This document shows positions 37,201-49,800 of a stretch of 64,000 bases of DNA, in pieces. The first letter of the stretch is position 1. Each line of letters begins with the position of its first letter. The notes under the pieces are model-generated. The model saw only the letters and a program-made list of their open reading frames with translations. It was not told the origin of the DNA and did not search any database. This stretch comes from Protoeuglena noctilucae (taxonomy: Eukaryota). Location of the stretch: NCBI GenBank assembly GCA_958009085.1, contig OY253671.1, positions 1,302,001-1,366,000 on the forward strand. The letters run 5' to 3'. The translations under genes were made by a program, and so were the position numbers.

Positions 37201-39500
37201 CGACAAGGGTCATGATTTGTACTCTTTCTACGCCTGGGTGCGTGACCGTCGCCGCTGCCACCCCTCGGCACCCATCCGTCATGACAACCATCATAGGCCT
37301 AGGCCAATTGAACCAGCCACCCATGCTGCTGACTGGCCGCCCCTGCAATCCCTCTCCCGCGCGCTCACCCGTGTGGAAGTGGCCGCACGAGACGTCCATG
37401 ACGGTGCAGGCGGCGAGGTAGTCCACGAGACGAGGGGTGAGGCACGTCTCCTGGTTGCCGTGCCCCAGTCGCCCGCTGTAGCCGTCACCCCACGTGTACA
37501 GGGCGCCCGACCGGGTGACGGCCGCGCAGTGGAAGGGCCCGCACGACACCTTGCGCACGCGCTGGCGCTGGAACGGCCCCCGCACCGGCTGCGGCACCCA
37601 CCGCAGGTGCCCCGCGTCGGTCCCCAGGCACAGCGACGAGGGCGAGCCCCAGGTGTACAGGCGGCCGGACCGCGTCACCGCCGCGCTGTACCACGTGGAA
37701 CATGCCACCTGCGATCAAGGTGTTGCATTGAAACATTGGGTGTGATGATGGTGAGGTGTGATGACGCAGCCCACCACGCCCGCGCTCGTCAGGCTCCCCA
37801 CCTGCCGGACGCGCTCCAGCGCCAACCCCGCCACGTGCTTGGGTCCGTCCACGTCCATGTCGCCCCCGTGGCCCAGCACGCCCCCCACCCCGCACCCCCA
37901 CGTGTAGATGTCCCCGTCCCGCGTAATGAGCATGGCGTGGCGCGTGCTGCACGCCACCCGGTACACGTCGAGGTTGTTCGATCCCCGCACCACCTCTGGC
38001 ACGCTGCCCTCCTGCCAGTGACGGCTGCGCGGGCCCCCCACGCGACGGACCTTCTGCGGCCAGGGCAGACCTGCTCGAGTAAGGTGACCTGTTTGAAGGA
38101 GACCATGTAATTGAATGAGACAACGTATGTGAATGAAACAATGTGTGTGAATGAGATTGTGAGCCACTTCTGGGGCATCCAAACCACGAGGCCACCCCTA
38201 ACGGTCGGCTCGTTGCAAGCCGCATGAGACCCCGCCCTGCTCGCCTCCACGAGTGTGCCTGACATGCCAAAGATGAAGACGTCTCCTGGGTTGTGGCCGA
38301 CGGGACCCGGCGCGTACACCCGCTTGTCCTCCGGGCGCTCATGCCTGGGAGCAAATGGGTCCAGACCCGGTGAGGTGCGATGGCATTGCCCACAGCTCGC
38401 CACACCCAATAAAGCACAGTATGCCAGCGGCTCGCTGGAAGGACACAGCCACGTCCGTCTCCCTTACCCGAGTTCCATCTCGTCGACGCGCGATAAGTCA
38501 TCCATCGCGGAGCTGCGGGCCTCGGTCACTGACGCCGACGTGTCCAGGCTTGCCACGCTCGTCAGCCCCCGGTCGATGAGGGCCGACGAGGCCACGCGGG
38601 GAGTCTCCGCAGGAATCAGCCGCTTCTGCCGGGAGCGGAAGGGGAGAGCGCGTGAGAAACGTGGCCAGCCCGAGTCCCCCATTGCAACATGCACGCCATC
38701 GACGTACTCACCACCGCTAAGAGCCCGTAGTACCAGTTCTCGAAATCGATCTCTCCCTGCGCCGAGAGGTCCAGGGTCCTCTCCTTGACCGCGCCCTTCG
38801 GGCTCATCTCACGGTAGAGGATGGAGAAGCAAAAGCGCTCGTGCGCCGCGGCGACGTTGCGCTTGTTCCTCCGGAAAACCTCCGTGGACTGGCCCTTGAG
38901 GACGTTGAACATGTGCCTGCGCACGACGCCGGGCAGCTCGCTCCTGCTGCGCGCTCGTCGGCGCGCGGCCGGCAGGCCTAGTGAAACGCTCGGCAAGCGA
39001 ACAGGCCCCGCTGCAGCCCGCGCTCACTTGACCGGAATTTTCGTCGGGCGGCCGCTCTTGCTGATGTACTGCAGGTACTGCAGATCCTGGATCAGCGCGA
39101 GCGTCGTTTGGTGCGGCGCGCCCTGCCTCCCATACTTGATGAGCGACGTGCCCTTCACCATCCCCGTCCTGAACTCCGACGGAGGTCTGCGGGGCGGGAA
39201 CGCTACAGGACGATGAACATTCTACTGACGGGATGAGGCGAGAAGCGTCCTGAGGGCCGGGGCCACGCGCGGCCGCGGGGGCGCGATGCGCTTGGCGGTG
39301 CCCACGGTCCTTCGTCCCGCCCAGCAGGGCCGCAAACAGTATCCATGCATGCAGCCCCAGCCCTTAAGAGCTCCTCGACGGGACCGTGCCCCCACCACGC
39401 ACCGGCTCGTGCCGCCTGTGACGGCGTGGATGGCCGCGGCCCACTCCGTGTCCATCCCCGCGTTCGAAACGCGGGAGACGGTCGGCGCGTTCGACGTCAT
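31222..39500 (-). CDS. PRAF/RLD-family PH + RCC1 repeat + BRX domain protein
   Basis: N-terminal PH-like MVKGTSLIKYGRQG...FSILY..ERTLDL..ENWYYGL. RCC1 repeats (VACSTRHAMLITRDGDIYTWG, VSCGPFHCAAVTRSGALYTWGDG..GRLGHG). Coiled coil. BRX domain EIEVEPEIFF../VLERVRFGKKRFDPQTAAKYFAANRERL. Confidence 0.85.
33817..33900. repeat. Perfect 42-bp tandem duplication within a PRAF intron
   Basis: ggccactgaccatgcgcatcactgcccaataactcccgcacc, two adjacent copies. Confidence 0.95.
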
Positions 39501-39767
39501 CTTGGACCCACCCCGATCGTCCGGGTCCTCTTGCGCGGTGCGCGCCTCAGGAACTTTGGATGCGGGGCACAGCCCCAGCGTGCTCTCCAGCCATTTCAAG
39601 CTCTCTCAACGCAGCCGACCCACGCAGGCATGGGCGGGCGCTCCGACGACTAGAGGACGCCAGCCGATGGGTCTCGCGCGAAGAAGGGACGACGTCGGGC
39701 CGCTTCAGGGCAATCAGCGTGCGTCAGACACATCCCCGGGGCCACCTCCCGCCCTCCCCCCGACGCA

Positions 39768-42700
39768 CTACCAGCCCGTGAAGTGCGCGATCTCCTGGCG
39801 CGCCTTCCGCATCAGCTGCAGCCGCTTCTGGCACTCGAGGCGCCGCGTGGCCGTGGCCTCGTCCTCGGCCAGCAGCCGGCGGAGGTCGTCCTCGTCTTTG
39901 CCGTGCACCTCCTTGATCAGTCTGTCCAGGAGCCGCTCCTGCGAGGGCGGCGCCGCACGCCCGCGTCGGGACAAGCTGCGTGCGGGGCGATGCGTGCGTT
40001 CGCGGACCCAACGTCGCCCAGTGGAGCCCCGTCACCTTGGCTTTGACGACCTGGTGATGCACGATGGCCTTGGGGATGGTGGCCGCCAGCTGGTTGGCCA
40101 CTACCTTCAGGTACACCGACACGCGCTGGGCAATCGTCCACAGCTCCCTCTGGCGGGAATCCAAGTGGGCCGGCGGCTGCGTCGGCAGCACGTTGCCGTC
40201 TGCGGACTCACAGGGGGCGCAAGCAGGTCATGGCAGCGACAGTAGCAAGCCCGCGGCACGAGCGCGAGCGGCGCCTACGGTCGGCAGCAACCCCGCTGCC
40301 CCGGGAGCTCGCGCAGCTCACCGGGGCCGCGCATGCTTTGCATATCCTGCCCCGCCGTCATGTCCCGGAAAGGCTCCACCGTTGGGTAGGCCCCCTCCAT
40401 GTCCACCAGAATGGAGACGTACTTGGCTGCCTCAGACCGGAACTCCTGGAGGGACTTCTGCGCACAGAAGACAGCCACGCGACGCGTCCATGCGCGCCGC
40501 CCAGCCACCCTCGGCCCTTGCTTTGACTCACAAGCGTGGCCGGTCACGCGTCGTGCGTCACGACAGTAGCGAGGCTGCCGCTGGCCCTGCACTGTTGAGA
40601 ACCACCACTGCAATGGCCATGCCATGCCCGGCACTGACCTGGGCGACGGCCTCGAGCTCTGCCCTCAGATTGCGGTACTTGGCCAGCCCCTTGGCGAACT
40701 CGGCACGCACCGACCGTTGCACCAGCTCCGACAGCACCCCGTGCGTGCTCTCCACCGCGCGCTGGGCCGGGTGGTGCAGCTGCGTGCGGGGAGGCTCGAA
40801 ATGCGCGTCTGAGTACTACCACCAGATGCTTGGCAAGGCCCAACGCCGAAAAGCCGTGGTGGCACTCAGAAGGGATGCCTGCGACTGGCAAAGTGAGAGC
40901 GCAGCGCATGCCAGCTCGTTGGGGAAGTGCTCACCTCCTTTACTCTCAGCTTGATGAGCTCACGGTACCCTTGCTCGGGCGCAATCAAGTACCGCTGGTA
41001 GCCATCGGCCTGGGACGTGATCTCGTTCACGTAATCCAGGGCCAGGGTCTTGCTGGCCGTGTTCATGATCTCCTTCGCCAGTGGGCCCTGCGAATGCAGC
41101 ACCCGGCCATCTCCTGCCCGCATGACATCCCCCTGACACTCTCGCTCACGCACCAGCCTCTGCCCCACACCAGCGGTGTTGCCTCTGCCCCACCCACCTC
41201 AAAGATCTCGAGGATCTTCACCCCTCCGCCCTCCCCTCCGTCAATCCACTCCGCGTAGCCCCTCTGGAACGCCTGGCAGATCATGACCACCTCGTGCGCC
41301 ATGTCGCCCCGAGACTGCAATCACATTCCATGCACAGGGTAGCTGTCAGTGTGCAGCAAGCGCATCCACTGCACAGTTGCCACTCTGCATGACGCACCCC
41401 AAGTCACGTCGCCACTCTGCATGATGCATAGATCTGGCCCCGCTGGTCTTGCCCCGCTCACCTCGAGCGTGGGTCCTCCCAGGTCCTCAATCTGCTTCTC
41501 GAGCTTGCCGATGTTCTCGTCGATGGTGCGCTGGATGTTGGGGATCTCCCGCTGGATCGTCCGCTCCAGCACCTCGCTCAGCTTGCGCGACTGCGGCACG
41601 TGGGGCAGGACTCTCCAGGCCACATCACATCAGCCGGCCAGGGGCCTGCAATACACGTGACCCTCTCATCCGAACCCACCAGCGTCTCCGTCCCGATGTT
41701 CTCGAGGTCTCGGTACGCCGGGTTCTGCTGGAAGAACTCCCTCTCCCTTCGCCGCGCCTCATTCATGTCCATGCGGGCGTTGAGGTCCGCCTGGGCCCGG
41801 TTGACCACGGCGACCCATCCCATGCGCAGGCTCACTTCCTTGCCCTGCGGTAATGAGAAATGCGCACAGTCTCTGCTCCGCGCACTGTCTCTGCTCACTC
41901 TCATATGGCGGCGGACCCCAAGTCTCAAAGGGAAGGGAGGTGGCGTGCGGGTCCCACCATGAGCACGTTGCGTGCGGACGTGCCGCGGTCCATGATGTCC
42001 ACTTTCGTCAGCGCGCCGATCGTCCTCTCCCCCGCGGGGTCCACCCTCCTCGCGATGTTGAGGGCGTCTGAGGTGGCCAGGTCGGCGTTCGCAGGCGACA
42101 CGGCCAAGATGATGGTGTTCTGCCCCTGCGCCCACGGGGCCGGCGGGGCGTGCGTTTGCATCCACTGATCGCACAGAAAAAGCTTCTAGCTCCTTCCAGG
42201 ACGGCAACGGTCATCGTATGCAAATGGCGCGCTCCGACCCTGCAATAACAACCAGGGCGACGGACCTGGATGTACTGAAGCACCATGTCCTCGATCTCCT
42301 TAATGATGCTCTCGGGCTGCCCGTCGATCGCGATCTTGGTGAGCCCTGCGGGACCACGCGGGCAGCATGCGATGGGCCCATGACCATCGCAGCGACCAGC
42401 GTACACGCTGGGCTCACGAGCCTCACCTGGCATGTCGATGAGCGTGAGGTTGGGCACCTTGGGCGACGCGATCCTCAAGTGGATGGGCGCCGCGTCCACC
42501 ATCTTCTTCACCTTGGCGATGTGGCGCTGCGGCGGGGCGGCGAGACACCGATCGCACGTCGCACCAACCCCGTGCGCACCCCCCCGCAATCTCCGAGCGA
42601 TGTCACGTGATAATACCCATCGCGTCACCTGCGTCTCGTCCTCGATCTCCCGCATGATCTCATGGAAGTCATAGAACTGCTCCCCAGTCTTAAGGTGCTG

Positions 42701-43099
42701 GAACTCGCCATACTCGCGGGCGCCCGGGTCCGCCAGGTGCTCCAGCTGCAGGATCAGCGGCCGGCGCGTGACGATGCCCTGGCCGCGGGGCAGGAAGTCC
42801 CTGCGGGGCGAGGGCAAGCAGTCACGTCAGCGACGTCACGTTGAGCACGCTCGCGCTGCGGCGTCCGCTGCGGTGCGGGCTGCGCGCAGGTGCCATCGTG
42901 CGCTGATGTCTCGCCTGCCGACGATGGCCTCGAGAACCGAGGACTTGCCGCTGCTCTGCCCGCCCACGACGACGATGGCGGGGAGGAGGTCCCACAGGCC
43001 CGGGAGGCCGCCGCCCGTCGTCACCGCGTTCTCGTTGAACTTGGCACAGATCTGCTGTAGCTTGTTCACAAGCTGCAGCACCTTCGGAAGCGTCGACAT
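39768..43099 (-). CDS. DRP1: Dynamin-related protein, plant DRP1 (phragmoplastin) type: GTPase-middle-GED, no PH domain
   Basis: G1 [33 protein letters not shown]3 LIDMPGLTK, G4 TKVD, VVNRAQ. Middle domain [30 protein letters not shown]...EIAHFTGW. Confidence 0.93.
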
Positions 43100-43723
43100 G
43101 ACGCGGCGCCGCGCCGGCCCTGCGACTCGTGATGTGACGGGGCGGGAAGCGATGGGTGGGGCCGCCGAGCCATCCCCCGCGCACGTGCGGCACGTCTTAT
43201 GGATCATCACAGGCCCGACAACTTCCTGAGCGTCAGCAGCGGCGCATCGTGCATCACCTGCGCCGGGAAAACGCCCTTTCGAGCCGCCTGACAATCCCAG
43301 GTCCCGGTGGCACGCGCGCGTCGCTGGGGATGCGTTGTCTTAGCCGAAGCTTTTAAGTTGTCCCAGCGTGAGGACGGGCTATCGATACGGTTGCTCGCTG
43401 CGTCCCTCGCGCCAAGAGGGCGGGCTTCGTCGCCGGAGGACAGCAGCACCGGGTGGAAGAGGGCGTTGCGTTCGCAATGGCCACGTTCAGGTGCAATTGT
43501 TCGAACTTTGCGTCCGCTGTGGCTTCAAGGCGAAGGGTCGAGATGTGACGGGCGAGCGGGCAGTGCAACTGCTCGTGACGATCGAACTGCCGCATCGAAC
43601 CGTCCAGGCGACGCGCGCGTTTAGCTTCATAACGCTAGGACCTCGCGATCAGAACAATTCTGCTATCAGGCTTTTGTTACCGAGGCTGGATTTCAACTCT
43701 GTTCCTGGGCCCGAGGGCCCCCG

Positions 43724-46321
43724 ATGGAGACCATCCGCACCTTATTCAAGACCCGCATGGACCTGGACACTCAGCGGCCTGCGAGCCTCGCGGCCGTATC
43801 CTCTGCGGGGTCAGCTGCATTCTGCGGCTTGCGACACTGCTCCGACGGTAGACGCGTGCCTGATTTGCATTAAATGCCTGGCGTTCGCAGAGGAATCTCG
43901 TTAAGCGACGCGTCCAGCGTGCTCGCGACGCCGGAGGCGCGCCGAGACGATGACGAGCCTCGCATGTTCAGGGTCCCGGCGCACGAGCTTCTCCGCGAGA
44001 GGGCGTCCGTTACGGCGAGGCTGGAGCAGCTTCAGTCGTCCCTGTTAACGTCTGCAGAGGTGATGCAGCGTTCGTCCCGTCTCCGCCCGTCCCCAGGCTG
44101 CATATATGCATGCAACGCCCAGACCCAGCTTTGCAGGTGGCCGCGATCGTCACTCTCGTCTGCGCGAACGTGACCAAGAGCCTGGGCAGTGCCGACGCCG
44201 TTCCCGTCCGTTCCTCGCTCGACGTCGACGGCATGGCATCGGCGCTGGGAGCCGCGCTGCAACGCGTGACGCCCCAGACGGTCGCGGAAGCCCTCAGGAC
44301 GAGCGCTGGGTACCGCGGCGTGCTGCTCTGTCCGGAAGATGGGACGAGGGCCCTGCTGGTGGACGCCCTCGGCGCCCTGCGTCCTCCATGCTTGGATGTG
44401 GTGGACCGATGCTGCACAGCCCTCACCACCCTCCTCCGCCAGGTGAGGCCCACAAGCCTTGCTTATTCATCTCAGGTGACCTAAGCGCTTTGCTGTCATG
44501 TCTTCAGTCCCCAAACCGTCCCCGCAGTGCCTCGACCGCACCTTGACTGGGCTGCCTGACCCTAAGGCGGGCACGAAGGCCCTCAGCGAGGCACTGGACT
44601 CTGGCATCGCGCGGTTCATCGAGGGCGCCAAAGCTGAATGCGCTTCGTTCGGCAAGTACCACCCCCCTGTGCCCTGCCTGCACCACTTCCGCCACAGTTC
44701 CGAAGATAAGGCCACTGCGTCGTGCCCTTCGCAGTCTCGTCCCTGGTGGCCATGGAGGCAGATATGGTGCAGGGCCTTCGGTTCAGGCCCCTCCTCGACC
44801 TGGACCTGCAGACGTCGACCGGCCGCGCACGCACAACCGACAACCGCAGAGTCGCTGCCCGGCCCGAGCCCCGGCCTGCCGTCGACTTCCTGGGCACCCC
44901 GCCGAGCCCCCTCCAGGCAGCCCGGGCCCGCGCCCTGCGCATCCGGGAGCCAATGCCGCACCTCCAGGTGTCGGGTTACCTGGAGCGCCTGACGAGCAGC
45001 GGCAAGTGGGCGCGGCGGTGGGTGTACGTGGACGGGGCAGACCACGTGCTGGTCTACTCGCGGCACCCCAAGAGCCTCTTCCCGAGCGAGATTGTGCCCC
45101 TGATTGAGGCGCGCCTCGTCAACGGCGCCCTCATGCAGACGCGCGGGTGAGGCATGCATGGAGCAGTGCAGCAGTGGTGGCGTCGTTGACAGAGGCATGG
45201 TGCGGGTGCTCCAGATCTCTCACAGCCAGTTTGGCCTGGCCGTGTCGCCCATTGCAGGGAGGAGGTTTACCAGCCCGGTCACGACAGGCTGGCCTTCACG
45301 CTCGTGCACGAGAGGGACGGGGGGCGGCTGATCGTCAGCAAGGGCGGCCGGGGGCCCCACTCACTCGTGTTGCGAGCTGCGGTGAGAGCTTGGGTTCCGG
45401 CACGCCTTGCACGCATTTCTCCTGGGCCAACTTCAAGCGATGCAATTGCACCGTTCCGGCCTCGGCTGCAGGACCGTGAGACCAAGGAGCGCTGGGTGGC
45501 GGCCCTGCTGGCCATTCTCGGGCAGGTCTCGATCGACGACATCGACGCACTGACGGGACCGGTGGCATCCCGCGAATGGGCGTCGAATGCCGTGGCTGCG
45601 GCCCCAGAGCACGCGAGCCCAGCCGTCCTCTCCTCGCCCGATGACGCAAGCGAGCCGGGCACGGAGGAGGACGTGGGGCAGGACGGCAGCGCTGTGCCGG
45701 ACAGGCAAGTGGCGGATGGAAAGCTGACAGAGCTACTCTGGTGCACCAGGTCACTGCCGCGCCCTTTTCACTGGCCCAAGTCTCACCTCTTTCTCTGCGA
45801 CCCTTGCACCTGCAGAGTTCTGCTGGCAGAGATGTCGGATCCCTCAGACGCGCTGGGTGTCCTCCCGGATGGCTCTGTGGCAGCGCTGGTGCGGGGCATC
45901 CAGGGGTACTGCAAGGAAGTCGCTGCCAGGTGCGTGTGACCACGACTGAGTGCTCAACCCACCCTCGCTGGACACGAGCCCAGGTCTGTGTTGTTTTCAT
46001 CCGTGCTCTCCTCTGCTTGCAGACTGGCGGAGGAGACCCCCAAAGCCGCCTCTCACCTGCTCATCCAAGCGGTCGAAGAGAACCTGGCGCCCGCCCTGCA
46101 GCGCCACATCCTGCAGCCCGCCACCTTCCAGGCACTGGTGCGTGGTTGCCTGGGGCGCAGGCACCGTAGATGACGCTGAGAGCCAGCAGAGGCCTGACTG
46201 GTTCCAGCACCGCTGCGGTACGCAGGCCACGCAGGAGGTCCGTCAGCAAATGGACGCCCTGCGTCACAAGCTGGAAGAGCTGGACCGTGCCATGCAGACG
46301 GGAGACGCGGACATGCCCTGA
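43724..46321 (+). CDS. Dynamin stalk (middle)-PH-GED protein with no GTPase domain (DRP2-like architecture minus the G domain), about 590 aa
   Basis: Ten exons join in frame. Middle domain SAGYRGVLLCPEDGTRALL..LRPPCLDVVD and VSSLVAMEA. PH domain VSGYLERLTSSGKWARRWVYV..HSLVLRAADRETKERWVAAL. GED IQGYCKEVAARLAEETPKAASHLLI. No P-loop upstream. Confidence 0.8.
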
Positions 46322-46801
46322 CGGGCCCGACAAGTCGTGCTTCAAACCAAGAGACGTGACCACGTGACACAGGCTGCCGAGAGCTGCCGCCCTAGCGGAG
46401 GCGCTTGGCGCTCTACCAGCCGCCGCTGCGTTTGCCGGTCGCAGCGACCGAGCGCCCCGCGAAACCGTGCGGGGTGGCTGTTTGGGCACGCGAGCAGTGG
46501 GATACAGGGAGAGTGAAAGAAAAAGGCTGAGTGCGCTGAGTGTACGATCACGATGTGCAAGCAAGGCGCATGCAGCGATCGATGCAAAGACAAATGGACG
46601 GCACGATGGCGTGCCTAGATGTCATGGACAGAAGATGGATGCGGCGGCAACGTGCTACGGCTCGCGCTGGAGATGAGAACGACACGGTGGGAGTGACGAG
46701 CGAGGTGTGGGAGGTGGCTGGTGAGTGGCTGCCCATGCTGCCTGCATCCTGCACAGATTTCCATAAAGCCCGCCTAATGCATAACCATACCGTCGCCCCT
46801 A

Positions 46802-49800
46802 TCAGGCGCCCTGGTTGGAGCTCGCCCGCTGGCTGCTCCGTGAACTCTGCTTGCTGGACTTGCGCTCGCTGGGCGGCTCCTTGATTCCCAGGTTCTCGAG
46901 CTTGTAGATGCCGGGGGCAGCCTGGTTGCCCTTCTTGTCCCTCTTCGGGCCCAACCGGCTCGGCTCGGGCTCTTCCACCGCAGTCTCTGCGGGGGCGCGG
47001 CCCTTGCCCCGGGCGCTGGTCGCTGACCCCGGCCGCGACGCCTGCGCTCCCGAGGCCCTGGCCGGCGTGCTCCCTTTCCCCTTCCCCGGCGTCCCCGACC
47101 CCGACGCCTTGCCCGGCGCGCGACCCTTCTCCTTCTCCTTGCTCGGCGTCGTCCCCGACCCCTTGCCCTTCCCACCGCCCTTGCCACCCTTCCCCTTGCC
47201 ACCCTTGCCCTTCCCGCCCCTCTTCGCAGTCCCAGCCACGGACGGCGCGCCCATCACGCTCTCCGCCCCGTCCGCCACGCTTAGCACCTCGTCGCTCGAC
47301 TCTCCCGCGGTCCCTTGGCACAGGTCCAACCCCTCCTCGCTCCCGGAATCGTTGCCGATGCCCAGGGCTCCCGAAGCCTCCGGGCCCAGCAACAGAGCGC
47401 TCTCCTCCGCTGCAAGAGGCGCGCTGGTTTTGGGCGCCTCGGCCGCGCTCTGGCCCGACTCGGTCCCCAGCCGCAGCGTCTTTGCGTCTGCGCCGGCGGC
47501 AGGAGCGTTGTCGGCGGGAGCGCTGGGACCTCGAGGGTCGGGCGCCACCGTCGCGTTGGCAGGTGGGGCGTCTTGCTTAGGGGACGCCATGTTGAGCGTC
47601 TCTGGCGTCGACTTGAGGTACCGAGATGAGTTGGTGGCACCCGCTGTGGGGCTGCTCGGCGCGTTCGGTGGCCCCGTCGCCGCCATCGCCCCGAACAGGT
47701 CCCGCCGGAGCGACGCGTCCCGCCCGACCGCGCTGTGCTCCCCCGGGCTGCCGCCCTGCGCGCTGGCCAGCGTCCCTGCGCTGGTCCACACGCTCTGCCA
47801 GTGCCCGCCGTCCGTCACGGCGGACTCAGGCCGCCCGCGGGGGGCAGCCACGGGGCCGGGGTTGTCCACGGCCAGCGCCCGCTGCGAGTTCTTCTTCTTG
47901 CGCCGGTATCGCTTGCCGTTGACCACGATGAAGTCCGGCTTGGCGTCGGTCGCCGCCGTCGACACGTCCACCGCCGACGGCTCGGCGCTCTCGAGGCCAC
48001 CCGCCGTGGCGCGCCGGAGCCACTTGACCGCGCCGTCCCGCGTGGTGACCACGCGCACGAGGGGGTTGCTCGTGGACTGCCCCACGGCCTCCACGGACGT
48101 GCCAGGCGCCGCGGCCAGGACCACGTTGAGCGGGAGGCCCCGGGAGGAGGAGCCTTGGGAAAGGGAGGGGCCCACGGCAATGACGTCGGCGGAGCTGCAG
48201 GACAGGCGATGGCGGATGGAGAGGTTCGCTGGCTGGCAAATCGTGCTGCAACGCAAGTGGTTTACGCGCAACTACGCTCCAAGCTCCCCTGCCCCTCACC
48301 TGTGAGGAGTGCCTCCGTCGCCCGTGCCCGCAGCGCTCGCGGGGCCCCCAGTCGCTGACCCAGGCGACCCAGCTCGCACCCCAGACGAGAACCTGTCTGG
48401 CACCGGCGCCGCCCCTCCCGCGCCGTCGTTCGCGCCGATCATAGAGGCCTGCGACCCTGCCCTGCGTCCGGAGTCCCCCGACCCGTCCTCGTCGTCGTCT
48501 TCTGCCGCCATGGCGTCTCGGCCGAACCTGCTCCGTGCGGGCGGCCGCTGCCCGGGGCCTTGCGTGGATTTGCGTGACGCGGACGGTGGGCTCGCGGGGA
48601 GGGACCCCGGCGGCCGGGGCGGGGTGCCGAGTGGCGCCGGGCTGGGCAGACTCGACGCAGCCACCGCCTCCTGGCTCAGCACCGAGGTCGTGCGCGACAG
48701 GTGCGGGGCGCCCCGGGACGTCCCAGTGCTGGTGGTCGCCTCCAAGCCAGGGCCGAGGGTCTGGGCCCGGTTGCGGGCGGCCCTGCAGGACGGAAGAAGC
48801 GTGGGGCGCGTCGCACACAGAGGCACTTCGCTGTTTGCATGTCACGCTGCCGTAGGAACTGAGAGGGCGACGAGCAAGTCCACCACTTCAGCCCAAGCGA
48901 AAGCCTCACTTGTGCACTTGCGTGGCCAGCAGGGCAATGTCCTTGGCCTTCAGCTTTTTGCCCTCCTGCGCAGCGCGCAGCACCTCCCTCGCCCGCTCCT
49001 TCTCCCCAACCGGCTCCGCGGCTGGGGCCGCCTCCAGGGGCGGTGCCGGTTCGTCGTCATCCACCGTCACCGACGTGATCTGCCAAGCGTAAGGGAGCAA
49101 ATGAAATCATGCACTCGTGACAGGGGCTGCTAATGTTGCTTACTGACAACCGCGGTAAAGTTGACACCTGACGCAAGCCGGGCAGCGGCAGAGCCAGGGG
49201 AAGAGGACCGCGCTGACGCGCCCACCTGCCACACGCTGCGCCCACCTGTCTCATGGAGCGCGACCACCCGAGGCCCAGCCGCTGCACCATGCTGGGCCTG
49301 CGGACGAACACCTCCCGTTGGATCACGTGCCCCACCGCCGCCGCCTCTGCGGCCTTCTCGTCCCCACGGCCGTCCGCAACCTCTGCTTCCGGATCCGCCT
49401 CCTCAGCCCCCTGCTTCGCTTTCTGTCTAATCGGCACCTCCCCTGCCCCTGCTGCTGACGAGCCTCCCTGCCCCAGCATGCTGGCGGGGGCCTGACGCCC
49501 GCCCGGACGGTCGGCGCTGCGCCGCGCGATGACCCCTGGGGGCGGGGTCATGCGGTGCACGCTCTCGGTGATGGTCGGCAGGCCCTGCGACGCCCACATG
49601 CCTCGCGGCGGCGAGGCCACGCCGGGACCCTCCCCATCTGGCCCTGGGCCGAACCTCGACAGCCGTGACGCGGCCACCCCTGAGCCGGGCCCGTTGCCCA
49701 CCGACCCTCGCCGGATGCTGTCCGCGCGAACGGCCCTGGCTGCCGCCGCTGCGGCGCCGTGCCCGGCCAGGCCCGCCGGGGCCGTGGCAGCGACGCTCGG

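Follow-up and report, generated by a model that had tools for sequence, protein, structure and literature searches.

The stretch of DNA analysed here—64,000 nucleotides from Protoeuglena noctilucae (GenBank assembly GCA_958009085.1, contig OY253671.1, positions 1,302,001 to 1,366,000 of the forward strand), called the window below, with coordinates counted from its first letter—carries two dynamin-related genes that stand head to head. On the minus strand (39768..43099) lies a complete, intact dynamin of the DRP1/phragmoplastin type, with a GTPase domain, a middle domain (the stalk) and a GED, and with no PH domain. On the plus strand (43874..46321) lies what is probably an intact dynamin-like gene lacking the GTPase domain altogether, with nine coding exons and a predicted product of 584 residues in which the C-terminal part of a stalk is followed by a PH-like domain and a probable GED. 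An original prediction, made from the letters alone, had placed two such genes head to head at these loci and both spliced models bear this out; its name for the pair, a ‘split dynamin’, is overstated, since DRP1 needs no second gene to be complete.

The case for dynamin ancestry of the plus-strand protein is carried by a profile of DRP1-type sequences, for which 104 full-length relatives were reduced to 12 by a redundancy filter and joined by the DRP1 of the window (13 dynamins in all). The spliced protein scored 45.1 bits against this profile, compared with 1.7 bits for the best of 1000 residue shuffles. The main match, of 37.3 bits, paired profile positions 386–530 with residues 105–249 across three exons and two splice junctions, and therefore supports the splice model itself. 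As a control, 1451 six-frame open reading frame (ORF) pieces of the window were scored against the profile: twelve had an E-value below 1, eleven of them from DRP1, the twelfth being exon 2 of the plus-strand gene, at 44137–44442 (E = 3.3e-6). For the plus-strand protein hhalign returned a probability of 94.3% and an E-value of 9.6e-8, with 142 columns aligned and 23% of them identical. BLASTP in a set of 148 proteins found DRP1-like matches at collinear positions with 25–31% identity and E-values down to 1.8e-7, while the two spliced models aligned with each other at 26.7% identity over 105 residues (E = 7e-6) and at 35% over 37 residues (E = 0.04).

Three stalk segments that had been paired by eye with DRP1 in the original prediction proved to be the cores of the hhalign, profile and BLASTP alignments, and a Dynamin_M and GED likeness was recovered by our own DRP1-type profile, whose matches fall in the stalk and at the beginning of the GED. 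When the window was searched by tblastn with the spliced plus-strand protein, DRP1 went unmatched at E-values up to 10; the likeness is therefore remote and visible only with the exons joined. As judged from these alignments, the likeness to dynamin exceeds chance and a dynamin-derived origin of the predicted protein is supported; the order of its domains (stalk, PH-like, GED), canonical for dynamins, counts in the same direction.

The best BLASTP matches of the plus-strand protein were DRP1s of other species and not the neighbouring DRP1. In a tree in which it was compared among DRP1s only, it occupied a branch of 5.0 changes per column in an unsupported position, was not sister to its neighbour and shared at most 24% identity. 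The stalk-region introns, compared by eye, also differ between the two genes, falling at RVKE/LHHP and AVAQ/KSLQ in DRP1 and at LLRQ/CLDR and CASF/VSS in the plus-strand gene. Because intron positions differ and the tree does not pair the two, the plus-strand gene is, on sequence grounds, an old or fast-evolving paralogue and no recent inverted or tandem duplicate of DRP1.

The exons of the plus-strand gene lie at 43874–44059, 44137–44442, 44528–44651, 44735–45146, 45258–45381, 45472–45749, 45816–45929, 46023–46137 and 46226–46321, with an alternative start of the last exon at 46190. The eight introns measure 66–111 nt in the preferred model and have seven GT donors and one GC donor; all eight acceptors are AG and, in the preferred model, all are GCAG. 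The GC donor (GCAAGT) belongs to intron 3 (44652–44734), whose junction is the only one that keeps the frame; it restores ...SFVSSLVAMEA / ...ECASFVSSLVAMEA, which hhalign aligned to DRP1. Two acceptors are available to the last intron. Position 46189, preceded by CAGCAG, gives a 52-nt intron and a protein of 596 residues; position 46225, preceded by ACGCAG, gives an 88-nt intron and 584 residues. The latter fits better, because it agrees with the local consensus and with the sizes of the other introns and takes the GED match to profile position 618. In all nine exons the predicted frame had the best coding score (codon scores −0.19 to +0.60), and the GC content at third codon positions (GC3) of the exons was 0.83 against a GC content of 0.61 in the introns. 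The claim that 43724–46321 holds an intact ORF of about 590 residues stands as regards the open frame (584–596 residues in nine exons); the start is probably not at 43724 and more likely at 43874.

Two features of these introns are recorded in passing. Introns 5 (45382–45471) and 6 (45750–45815) are multiples of three in length and free of stop codons, and their retention would add 30 or 22 residues. Each of the two genes has a single GC-AG intron—42801–42914 on the minus strand (donor GCGAGA) and 44652–44734 on the plus strand—which makes two among the 20 modelled introns, and GC donors seem to be used fairly often in this alga.

Stalk homology in the plus-strand protein covers residues 105–249, encoded by exons 2–4 (44263..44865), and includes the signatures GYRGVLLCPE and VSSLVAMEA; it was found by profile, hhalign and BLASTP alike. 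In Pfam, exon 2 alone matched Dynamin_M positions 164–229 with an E-value of 0.012, under the curated cut-off. Stalk homology is accordingly supported for the C-terminal ~145 residues of the stalk only. The 104 residues that precede it (43874..44262) have no assignable homology; by position alone they could correspond to the first stalk helices, and a MAFFT alignment hints at collinearity there, which we do not count as evidence.

Between the stalk and the GED lies a probable PH-like domain at about residues 281–402 (44959..45525), split by introns 4 and 5. On the profile its place is between positions 530 and 545, where dynamins canonically carry a PH domain. A PDB search with its N-terminal half returned just two chains at E-values up to 10, both of them PH domains (centaurin-delta 1, E = 0.11; ARAP3, E = 0.25). 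Judged by pattern, the C-terminal half looks as usual, closing with a tryptophan-containing helix (...ETKERWVAALLAIL), and has no profile support. The prediction of a PH domain between middle domain and GED thus found a PH-like segment at the canonical site, though with a Pfam score under the cut-off. The linkers on either side are probably disordered: that at 44866–44958 is rich in proline and arginine (EPRPAVDFLGTPPSPLQ), and that at 45526–45855 is acidic, rich in alanine, aspartate and serine and about 88 residues long. Classical dynamins have far shorter connections around their PH domain.

Probable GED homology extends over about residues 502–571, encoded in exons 7–9 (45889..46279), and contains YCKEVAARLAEETPKA. 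Profile positions 545–591 matched residues 502–548 (positions 545–618 with the exon at 46226) in collinear order at 5.5–5.8 bits, and both the position of the segment and its PKA-containing signature fit a GED. The C-terminus, ...LDRAMQTGDADMP, follows directly after the GED helix and reaches 13 residues past that last helix, with no proline-rich domain. 

The plus-strand protein has no GTPase domain and there is no room for one, as several results support. The G1, DxPG and [NT]KxD motifs were found neither in the protein nor in any plus-strand frame of 43100–46400; none of the 1451 ORF pieces from the 64-kb window is a GTPase-like piece (profile positions 1–300) on the plus strand; and no plus-strand piece tested in Pfam matched Dynamin_N. 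The 774 bp upstream of the gene show no coding signal, and beyond them DRP1 begins on the opposite strand. Motif scan and ORF-piece profile scan therefore uphold the original prediction that G1–G4 are absent and the space too small for a G domain. Its expectation for Pfam—Dynamin_M, PH and GED without Dynamin_N—was borne out to the extent that hints of all three appeared and Dynamin_N did not, but every one of the hints lay under its curated cut-off.

The start of the plus-strand gene is probably ATG 43874 rather than ATG 43724. The ORF from 43724 closes at TAA 43871–43873, directly abutting the later start (TAAATG), and it looks intron-like in composition (GC3 0.70, codon score −0.5). In a sliding scan of the plus strand the coding signal begins at about 43880, with nothing sustained across 43100–43870. 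A 45-nt intron at 43848–43892 that would join the 43724 ORF to exon 1 was considered and judged unlikely, as the other introns measure 66–111 nt and the ORF resembles non-coding sequence; it is because the earlier start needs this intron and has such codon usage that we take 43874 as the start. The distance between the divergent start codons becomes 774 bp, in place of the ~625 bp given in the original prediction. The divergent intergenic region (43100..43873) would include the probable 5′ leaders of both genes and holds the 49-codon plus-strand ORF at 43724–43873.

The segment 43724–43876 may represent an upstream ORF, with termination and reinitiation a possibility, or the trace of a formerly longer frame. 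We tried and rejected two assignments to the GTPase domain. A remnant of the G4 strand in 43724–43873 is a likeness by eye only, which 1234 of 2000 shuffles equalled or exceeded. Nor is there support for residues 1–104 as the end of the GTPase domain plus the first stalk helices: against the profile section between G4 and those helices, they and the upstream ORF scored −1.6 to −2.2 bits, a level reached by 1039–1271 of 2000 shuffles; addition of upstream or N-terminal residues gave full-profile scores of 44.7–44.8 bits against 45.1, and hence no gain.

Several observations weigh against the reading of an intact GTPase-less dynamin that works with DRP1. Residues 1–104 scored −1.6 bits against the sub-profile of DRP1 residues 196–345, which 1039 of 2000 shuffles at least equalled, and matched nothing in Pfam; since they have no detectable homology, a complete four-helix stalk is unsupported. 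The Pfam match to PH is confined to the N-terminal half of the domain (positions 3–56; E = 0.0057–0.0065) and its 17.4–17.6 bits fall below the cut-off of 25.1, just as the match to GED (positions 23–63; E = 0.05–0.09), at 13–14 bits, falls below 21.4. GC3 is lower in the plus-strand gene than in DRP1 (0.83 vs 0.91). The case for binding to DRP1 consists of adjacency and analogy alone. For Pfam, exon-by-exon searching has its own measure in the window: four pieces of DRP1 that carry C-terminal stalk exons had no dynamin match, and the method is therefore blind to that part of the stalk even in a genuine DRP1.

Searches for orthologues are a further point on that side. With exon 2 as query, phmmer found no orthologue among 1.84 billion representatives, returning only a 117-residue unspliced ORF call from the same DNA and a spurious repeat protein; the cluster of that ORF call has two members, identical except for the start, and so offers no variation. 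A word-index protein search for longer proteins and a scan of viral contigs, both with exon 2, were likewise negative. At a single locus, a metagenome scan with exon 4 produced a 46-residue likeness that lies in the disordered linker and carries no dynamin signal; we discarded it as spurious. Missing orthologues are weak evidence, because even for DRP1 the nearest relative reaches no more than 52% identity, and a single-exon search would miss orthologues of a gene evolving as fast as this one. That so diverged a gene has kept its frame open argues, on the other hand, for long-term constraint, since neutral decay across such a distance should have disrupted it.

Nor did the four marine metatranscriptome runs in which 8–16% of the words of the stretch occur provide evidence of transcription or splicing at the plus-strand gene. 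The alga is present in open-sea samples. Across 39500–46800, metatranscriptome contigs amount to 16 short pieces without splice joints, and gaps in their cover carry no weight. Fifteen are identical to the stretch save for one A>G at 45703, an Arg-to-Gly change within the acidic linker; the sixteenth, a 32-base piece at 39814–39845 with two differing letters and loose ends, is part of a longer contig. On the intergenic side, contigs from an independent marine study cover 42983–43164 and 43368–43538 without a difference. One contig (39873–40518) runs unspliced through DRP1 introns 11 and 12, and two run unspliced into or through plus-strand introns 6 and 8, that at 45507–45803 entering intron 6 by 54 nt. 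Since they are unspliced even across the introns of DRP1, the contigs are DNA-like or pre-mRNA-like and uninformative for expression.

With these points on both sides, we lean towards the following explanation as a whole. The plus-strand protein would be derived from a dynamin that lost its entire GTPase domain and kept the C-terminal stalk, a PH-type domain and the GED. Its PH domain would bind acidic lipids or phosphoinositides, and the protein would join DRP1 stalks as a non-catalytic subunit, which may either serve as a membrane foot for the PH-less DRP1 or hold its polymerisation in check; the second is conceivable because the protein cannot make the GTPase–GTPase contacts between turns. 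Co-assembly with DRP1, taken as a mechanism by itself, is a tentative proposal drawn from analogy and less likely than not; the lipid targeting or capping and the shared bidirectional promoter of the original prediction are conjectures likewise. As summarised in passages of PMC4154393, the stalk mediates both dimerisation and polymerisation of dynamins, the PH domain is turned towards the membrane and the C-terminal helix of the GED lies against helices of the GTPase domain; the same passages report that plant DRP1, which has no PH domain, interacts with the PH-bearing DRP2 in yeast two-hybrid assays.

Among the alternatives, the one that survives best is that the gene encodes a real GTPase-less, dynamin-derived protein that works independently of DRP1—a self-assembling membrane scaffold or a partner of DRP3 or DRP5—and that adjacency is coincidental. 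The long branch away from the neighbour, the intron positions that differ by eye and the closer BLASTP matches to DRP1s of other species would all suit it, and the original prediction had itself cautioned that divergent pairs are common in so compact a window. Stalk likeness was seen only to DRP1-type sequences, though only those were compared, and nothing speaks directly against it; we consider it unlikely all the same.

Somewhat further down our scale is a decaying remnant: a PH-bearing dynamin that lost its 5′ half, perhaps in a rearrangement beside DRP1, and persists as a young pseudogene or non-functional transcript. Such a history would account for the lack of expression evidence and of an orthologue, for residues 1–104 without detectable homology, for a GC3 below that of DRP1 and for an ORF (43724–43873) that recalls the G4 strand by eye and stops right before ATG 43874. 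It sits poorly with a frame that is open across nine exons with eight of eight standard introns and in-frame codon usage in every exon, and with the constraint that extreme divergence in an intact frame argues for; the G4 likeness, moreover, was matched or beaten by more than half of the shuffles (1234 of 2000). We regard this remnant, too, as unlikely.

An artefact of gene model or assembly would place the missing GTPase exons elsewhere: on another contig, in a separate transcript joined by trans-splicing, or so far upstream that DRP1 would lie inside an intron. The 5′ end is not fixed by a transcript, and the four runs that contain the whole stretch come from one sample, which may be the assembly’s own source. 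Against this, the 43.8 kb of the window that precede the gene hold no plus-strand GTPase-like piece, the contigs of the independent marine study match 42983–43164 and 43368–43538 exactly, and coding signal begins at about 43880, right after the stop codon; an artefact is very improbable. Least credible of all is a chance likeness between helical proteins, the plus-strand gene then encoding an unrelated PH-domain protein: exon 2 alone did find no dynamin among its three PDB matches at E-values up to 10, and a language-model look-up in the ESM Atlas placed it only in generic helical-repeat clusters at a low recognition of 1826, but a profile score of 45.1 bits, where none of 1000 shuffles exceeded 1.7, an hhalign probability of 94%, the standing of exon 2 as sole non-DRP1 scorer among the ORF pieces of the window and three collinear regions with family signature stretches all contradict it.

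If the favoured reading of a GTPase-less subunit of DRP1 polymers is true, it bears on how dynamins are thought to be controlled. The GTPase engine is what defines a dynamin, and adaptor proteins of unrelated descent are usually held responsible for regulating it. A GTPase-less paralogue that retained the stalk for assembly and a foot for lipid binding would amount to a built-in, homologous regulator or targeting subunit, and to a natural experiment on mixed dynamin polymers. Searches of open-access papers and preprints brought up no account of a dynamin paralogue that naturally lacks the GTPase domain. So far the finding comprises a single gene from a single marine green alga, whose lineage has been sampled only sparsely.

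Land-plant DRP2 is among the closest known parallels. DRP2 (DRP2A/B; GTPase, middle, PH, GED and a proline-rich tail) has its PH domain between stalk and GED, where the plus-strand protein has its PH-like segment, and it co-occurs and works with a PH-less DRP1. As far as comparison with DRP1-type sequences can show, the stalk and GED of the plus-strand protein belong to the DRP1/DRP2 type, and the protein differs from DRP2 in that it has neither the GTPase domain nor the proline-rich tail. A length-restricted search for DRP2-type proteins with the stalk and GED of DRP1 gave 25 matches, all of them DRP1 fusions or mis-models. Chlorophyta are said in passages of PMC4154393 to lack DRP2, and how they form vesicles is asked there; passages of that paper and of PMC11789081 describe DRP2 as specific to embryophytes and absent from green algae. 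For the origin of DRP2, passages of Langley et al. (2025; PMC11789081) propose that a Middle-PH-GED module of DRP1/2 type recombined with a divergent GTPase domain.

Set beside these accounts, a stalk-PH-GED protein touches both the origin of DRP2 and the recruitment of DRP1 to membranes in green algae that, by the passages cited (PMC11789081, PMC4154393), have no DRP2. Reasoning by analogy, one might go further and suppose that the membrane foot of DRP1 is supplied in trans by a stalk-PH-GED subunit, so that two genes do the job of DRP1 plus DRP2, or that the Middle-PH-GED module behind DRP2 has left a living relative in the plus-strand gene. This we hold to be improbable; were it true, it would bear on vesicle formation in Chlorophyta without DRP2, the question raised in the passages of PMC4154393.

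The remaining relatives and analogues differ from the plus-strand protein in instructive ways. DRP1/phragmoplastin proteins—the neighbour, plant DRP1A–E and their green-algal counterparts—share a homologous C-terminal stalk and GED start at 23–31% identity, but possess the whole GTPase domain and lack a PH domain; in the neighbour, the introns of the aligned stalk region fall elsewhere as judged by eye, and the tree does not make the two proteins sisters. Classical animal dynamin (GTPase, middle, PH, GED, proline-rich domain) presents the order of stalk, PH and GED that the stalk, PH-like segment and GED follow here, whereas the plus-strand protein has neither the GTPase domain nor the proline-rich domain and is missing two of three bundle-signalling helices. 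MiD49/51, Mff, Mdv1, PDV1/2 and ELM1 are non-dynamin adaptors of dynamin-related proteins, which have no catalytic part of their own and bring in or adjust the dynamin polymer, a role like that proposed here; none of them is known to derive from a dynamin stalk, whereas the plus-strand protein would insert itself through homologous stalk contacts. A natural truncation within the dynamin superfamily is also known from plant DRP4A, which is short and Mx-like according to passages of PMC11789081. The truncation is the opposite one: DRP4A keeps the GTPase domain and has a shortened stalk, while the plus-strand protein keeps stalk, PH-like domain and GED.

The neighbouring DRP1 gene (39768..43099, minus strand) encodes 626 residues in 13 exons, with its ATG at 43099, its stop codon at 39770–39768 and an open frame throughout, the splice sites having been read from three-frame views. 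From high to low coordinates the exons lie at 43099–42915, 42800–42629, 42526–42427, 42345–42266, 42125–41958, 41844–41680, 41590–41462, 41314–41198, 41087–40935, 40779–40639, 40457–40322, 40199–40036 and 39938–39768. The 12 introns are 81–181 nt long, with 11 GT donors and one GC donor (intron 1), and GCAG acceptors in all 12. The G1 (GGQSSGKS), G3 (DMPG) and G4 (TKVD) motifs are present, and among 12 minus-strand ORF pieces submitted to Pfam, three matched Dynamin_N, two Dynamin_M and two GED. As only about 25 residues separate stalk and GED, there is no PH domain. The domains, the motifs and this short spacing confirm its earlier identification as a PH-less DRP1.

A search for relatives of DRP1 gave 303 proteins with an E-value of at most 0.001 among 512 candidates, of which the best 120 were listed. 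Among these listed matches, the best named relatives came from Symbiochloris, Chloropicon primus, a pedinophyte and Chlamydomonas, together with plant DRP1A and names of the ‘soybean 5A/12A’ type; full-length identity was highest, at 52%, to the C. primus dynamin-related GTPase and stood at 44–50% for other green-algal and plant DRP1s. The tree likewise placed the minus-strand protein among the DRP1s of the green lineage.

The region as a whole is GC-rich (0.61–0.74), and its genes are multi-exon with short introns. Just 3′ of DRP1, a minus-strand ORF at 38709–38843 weakly resembles the second half of the plus-strand PH-like domain, with 28% identity across 50 residues (E = 1.3), and has no match in Pfam. 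On the 3′ side of the plus-strand gene, the minus strand at 46802–48271 holds a 489-residue open frame of low complexity, rich in alanine, glycine, serine and proline, with a GKGKGGKGKGG run and a GC content of up to 0.73.

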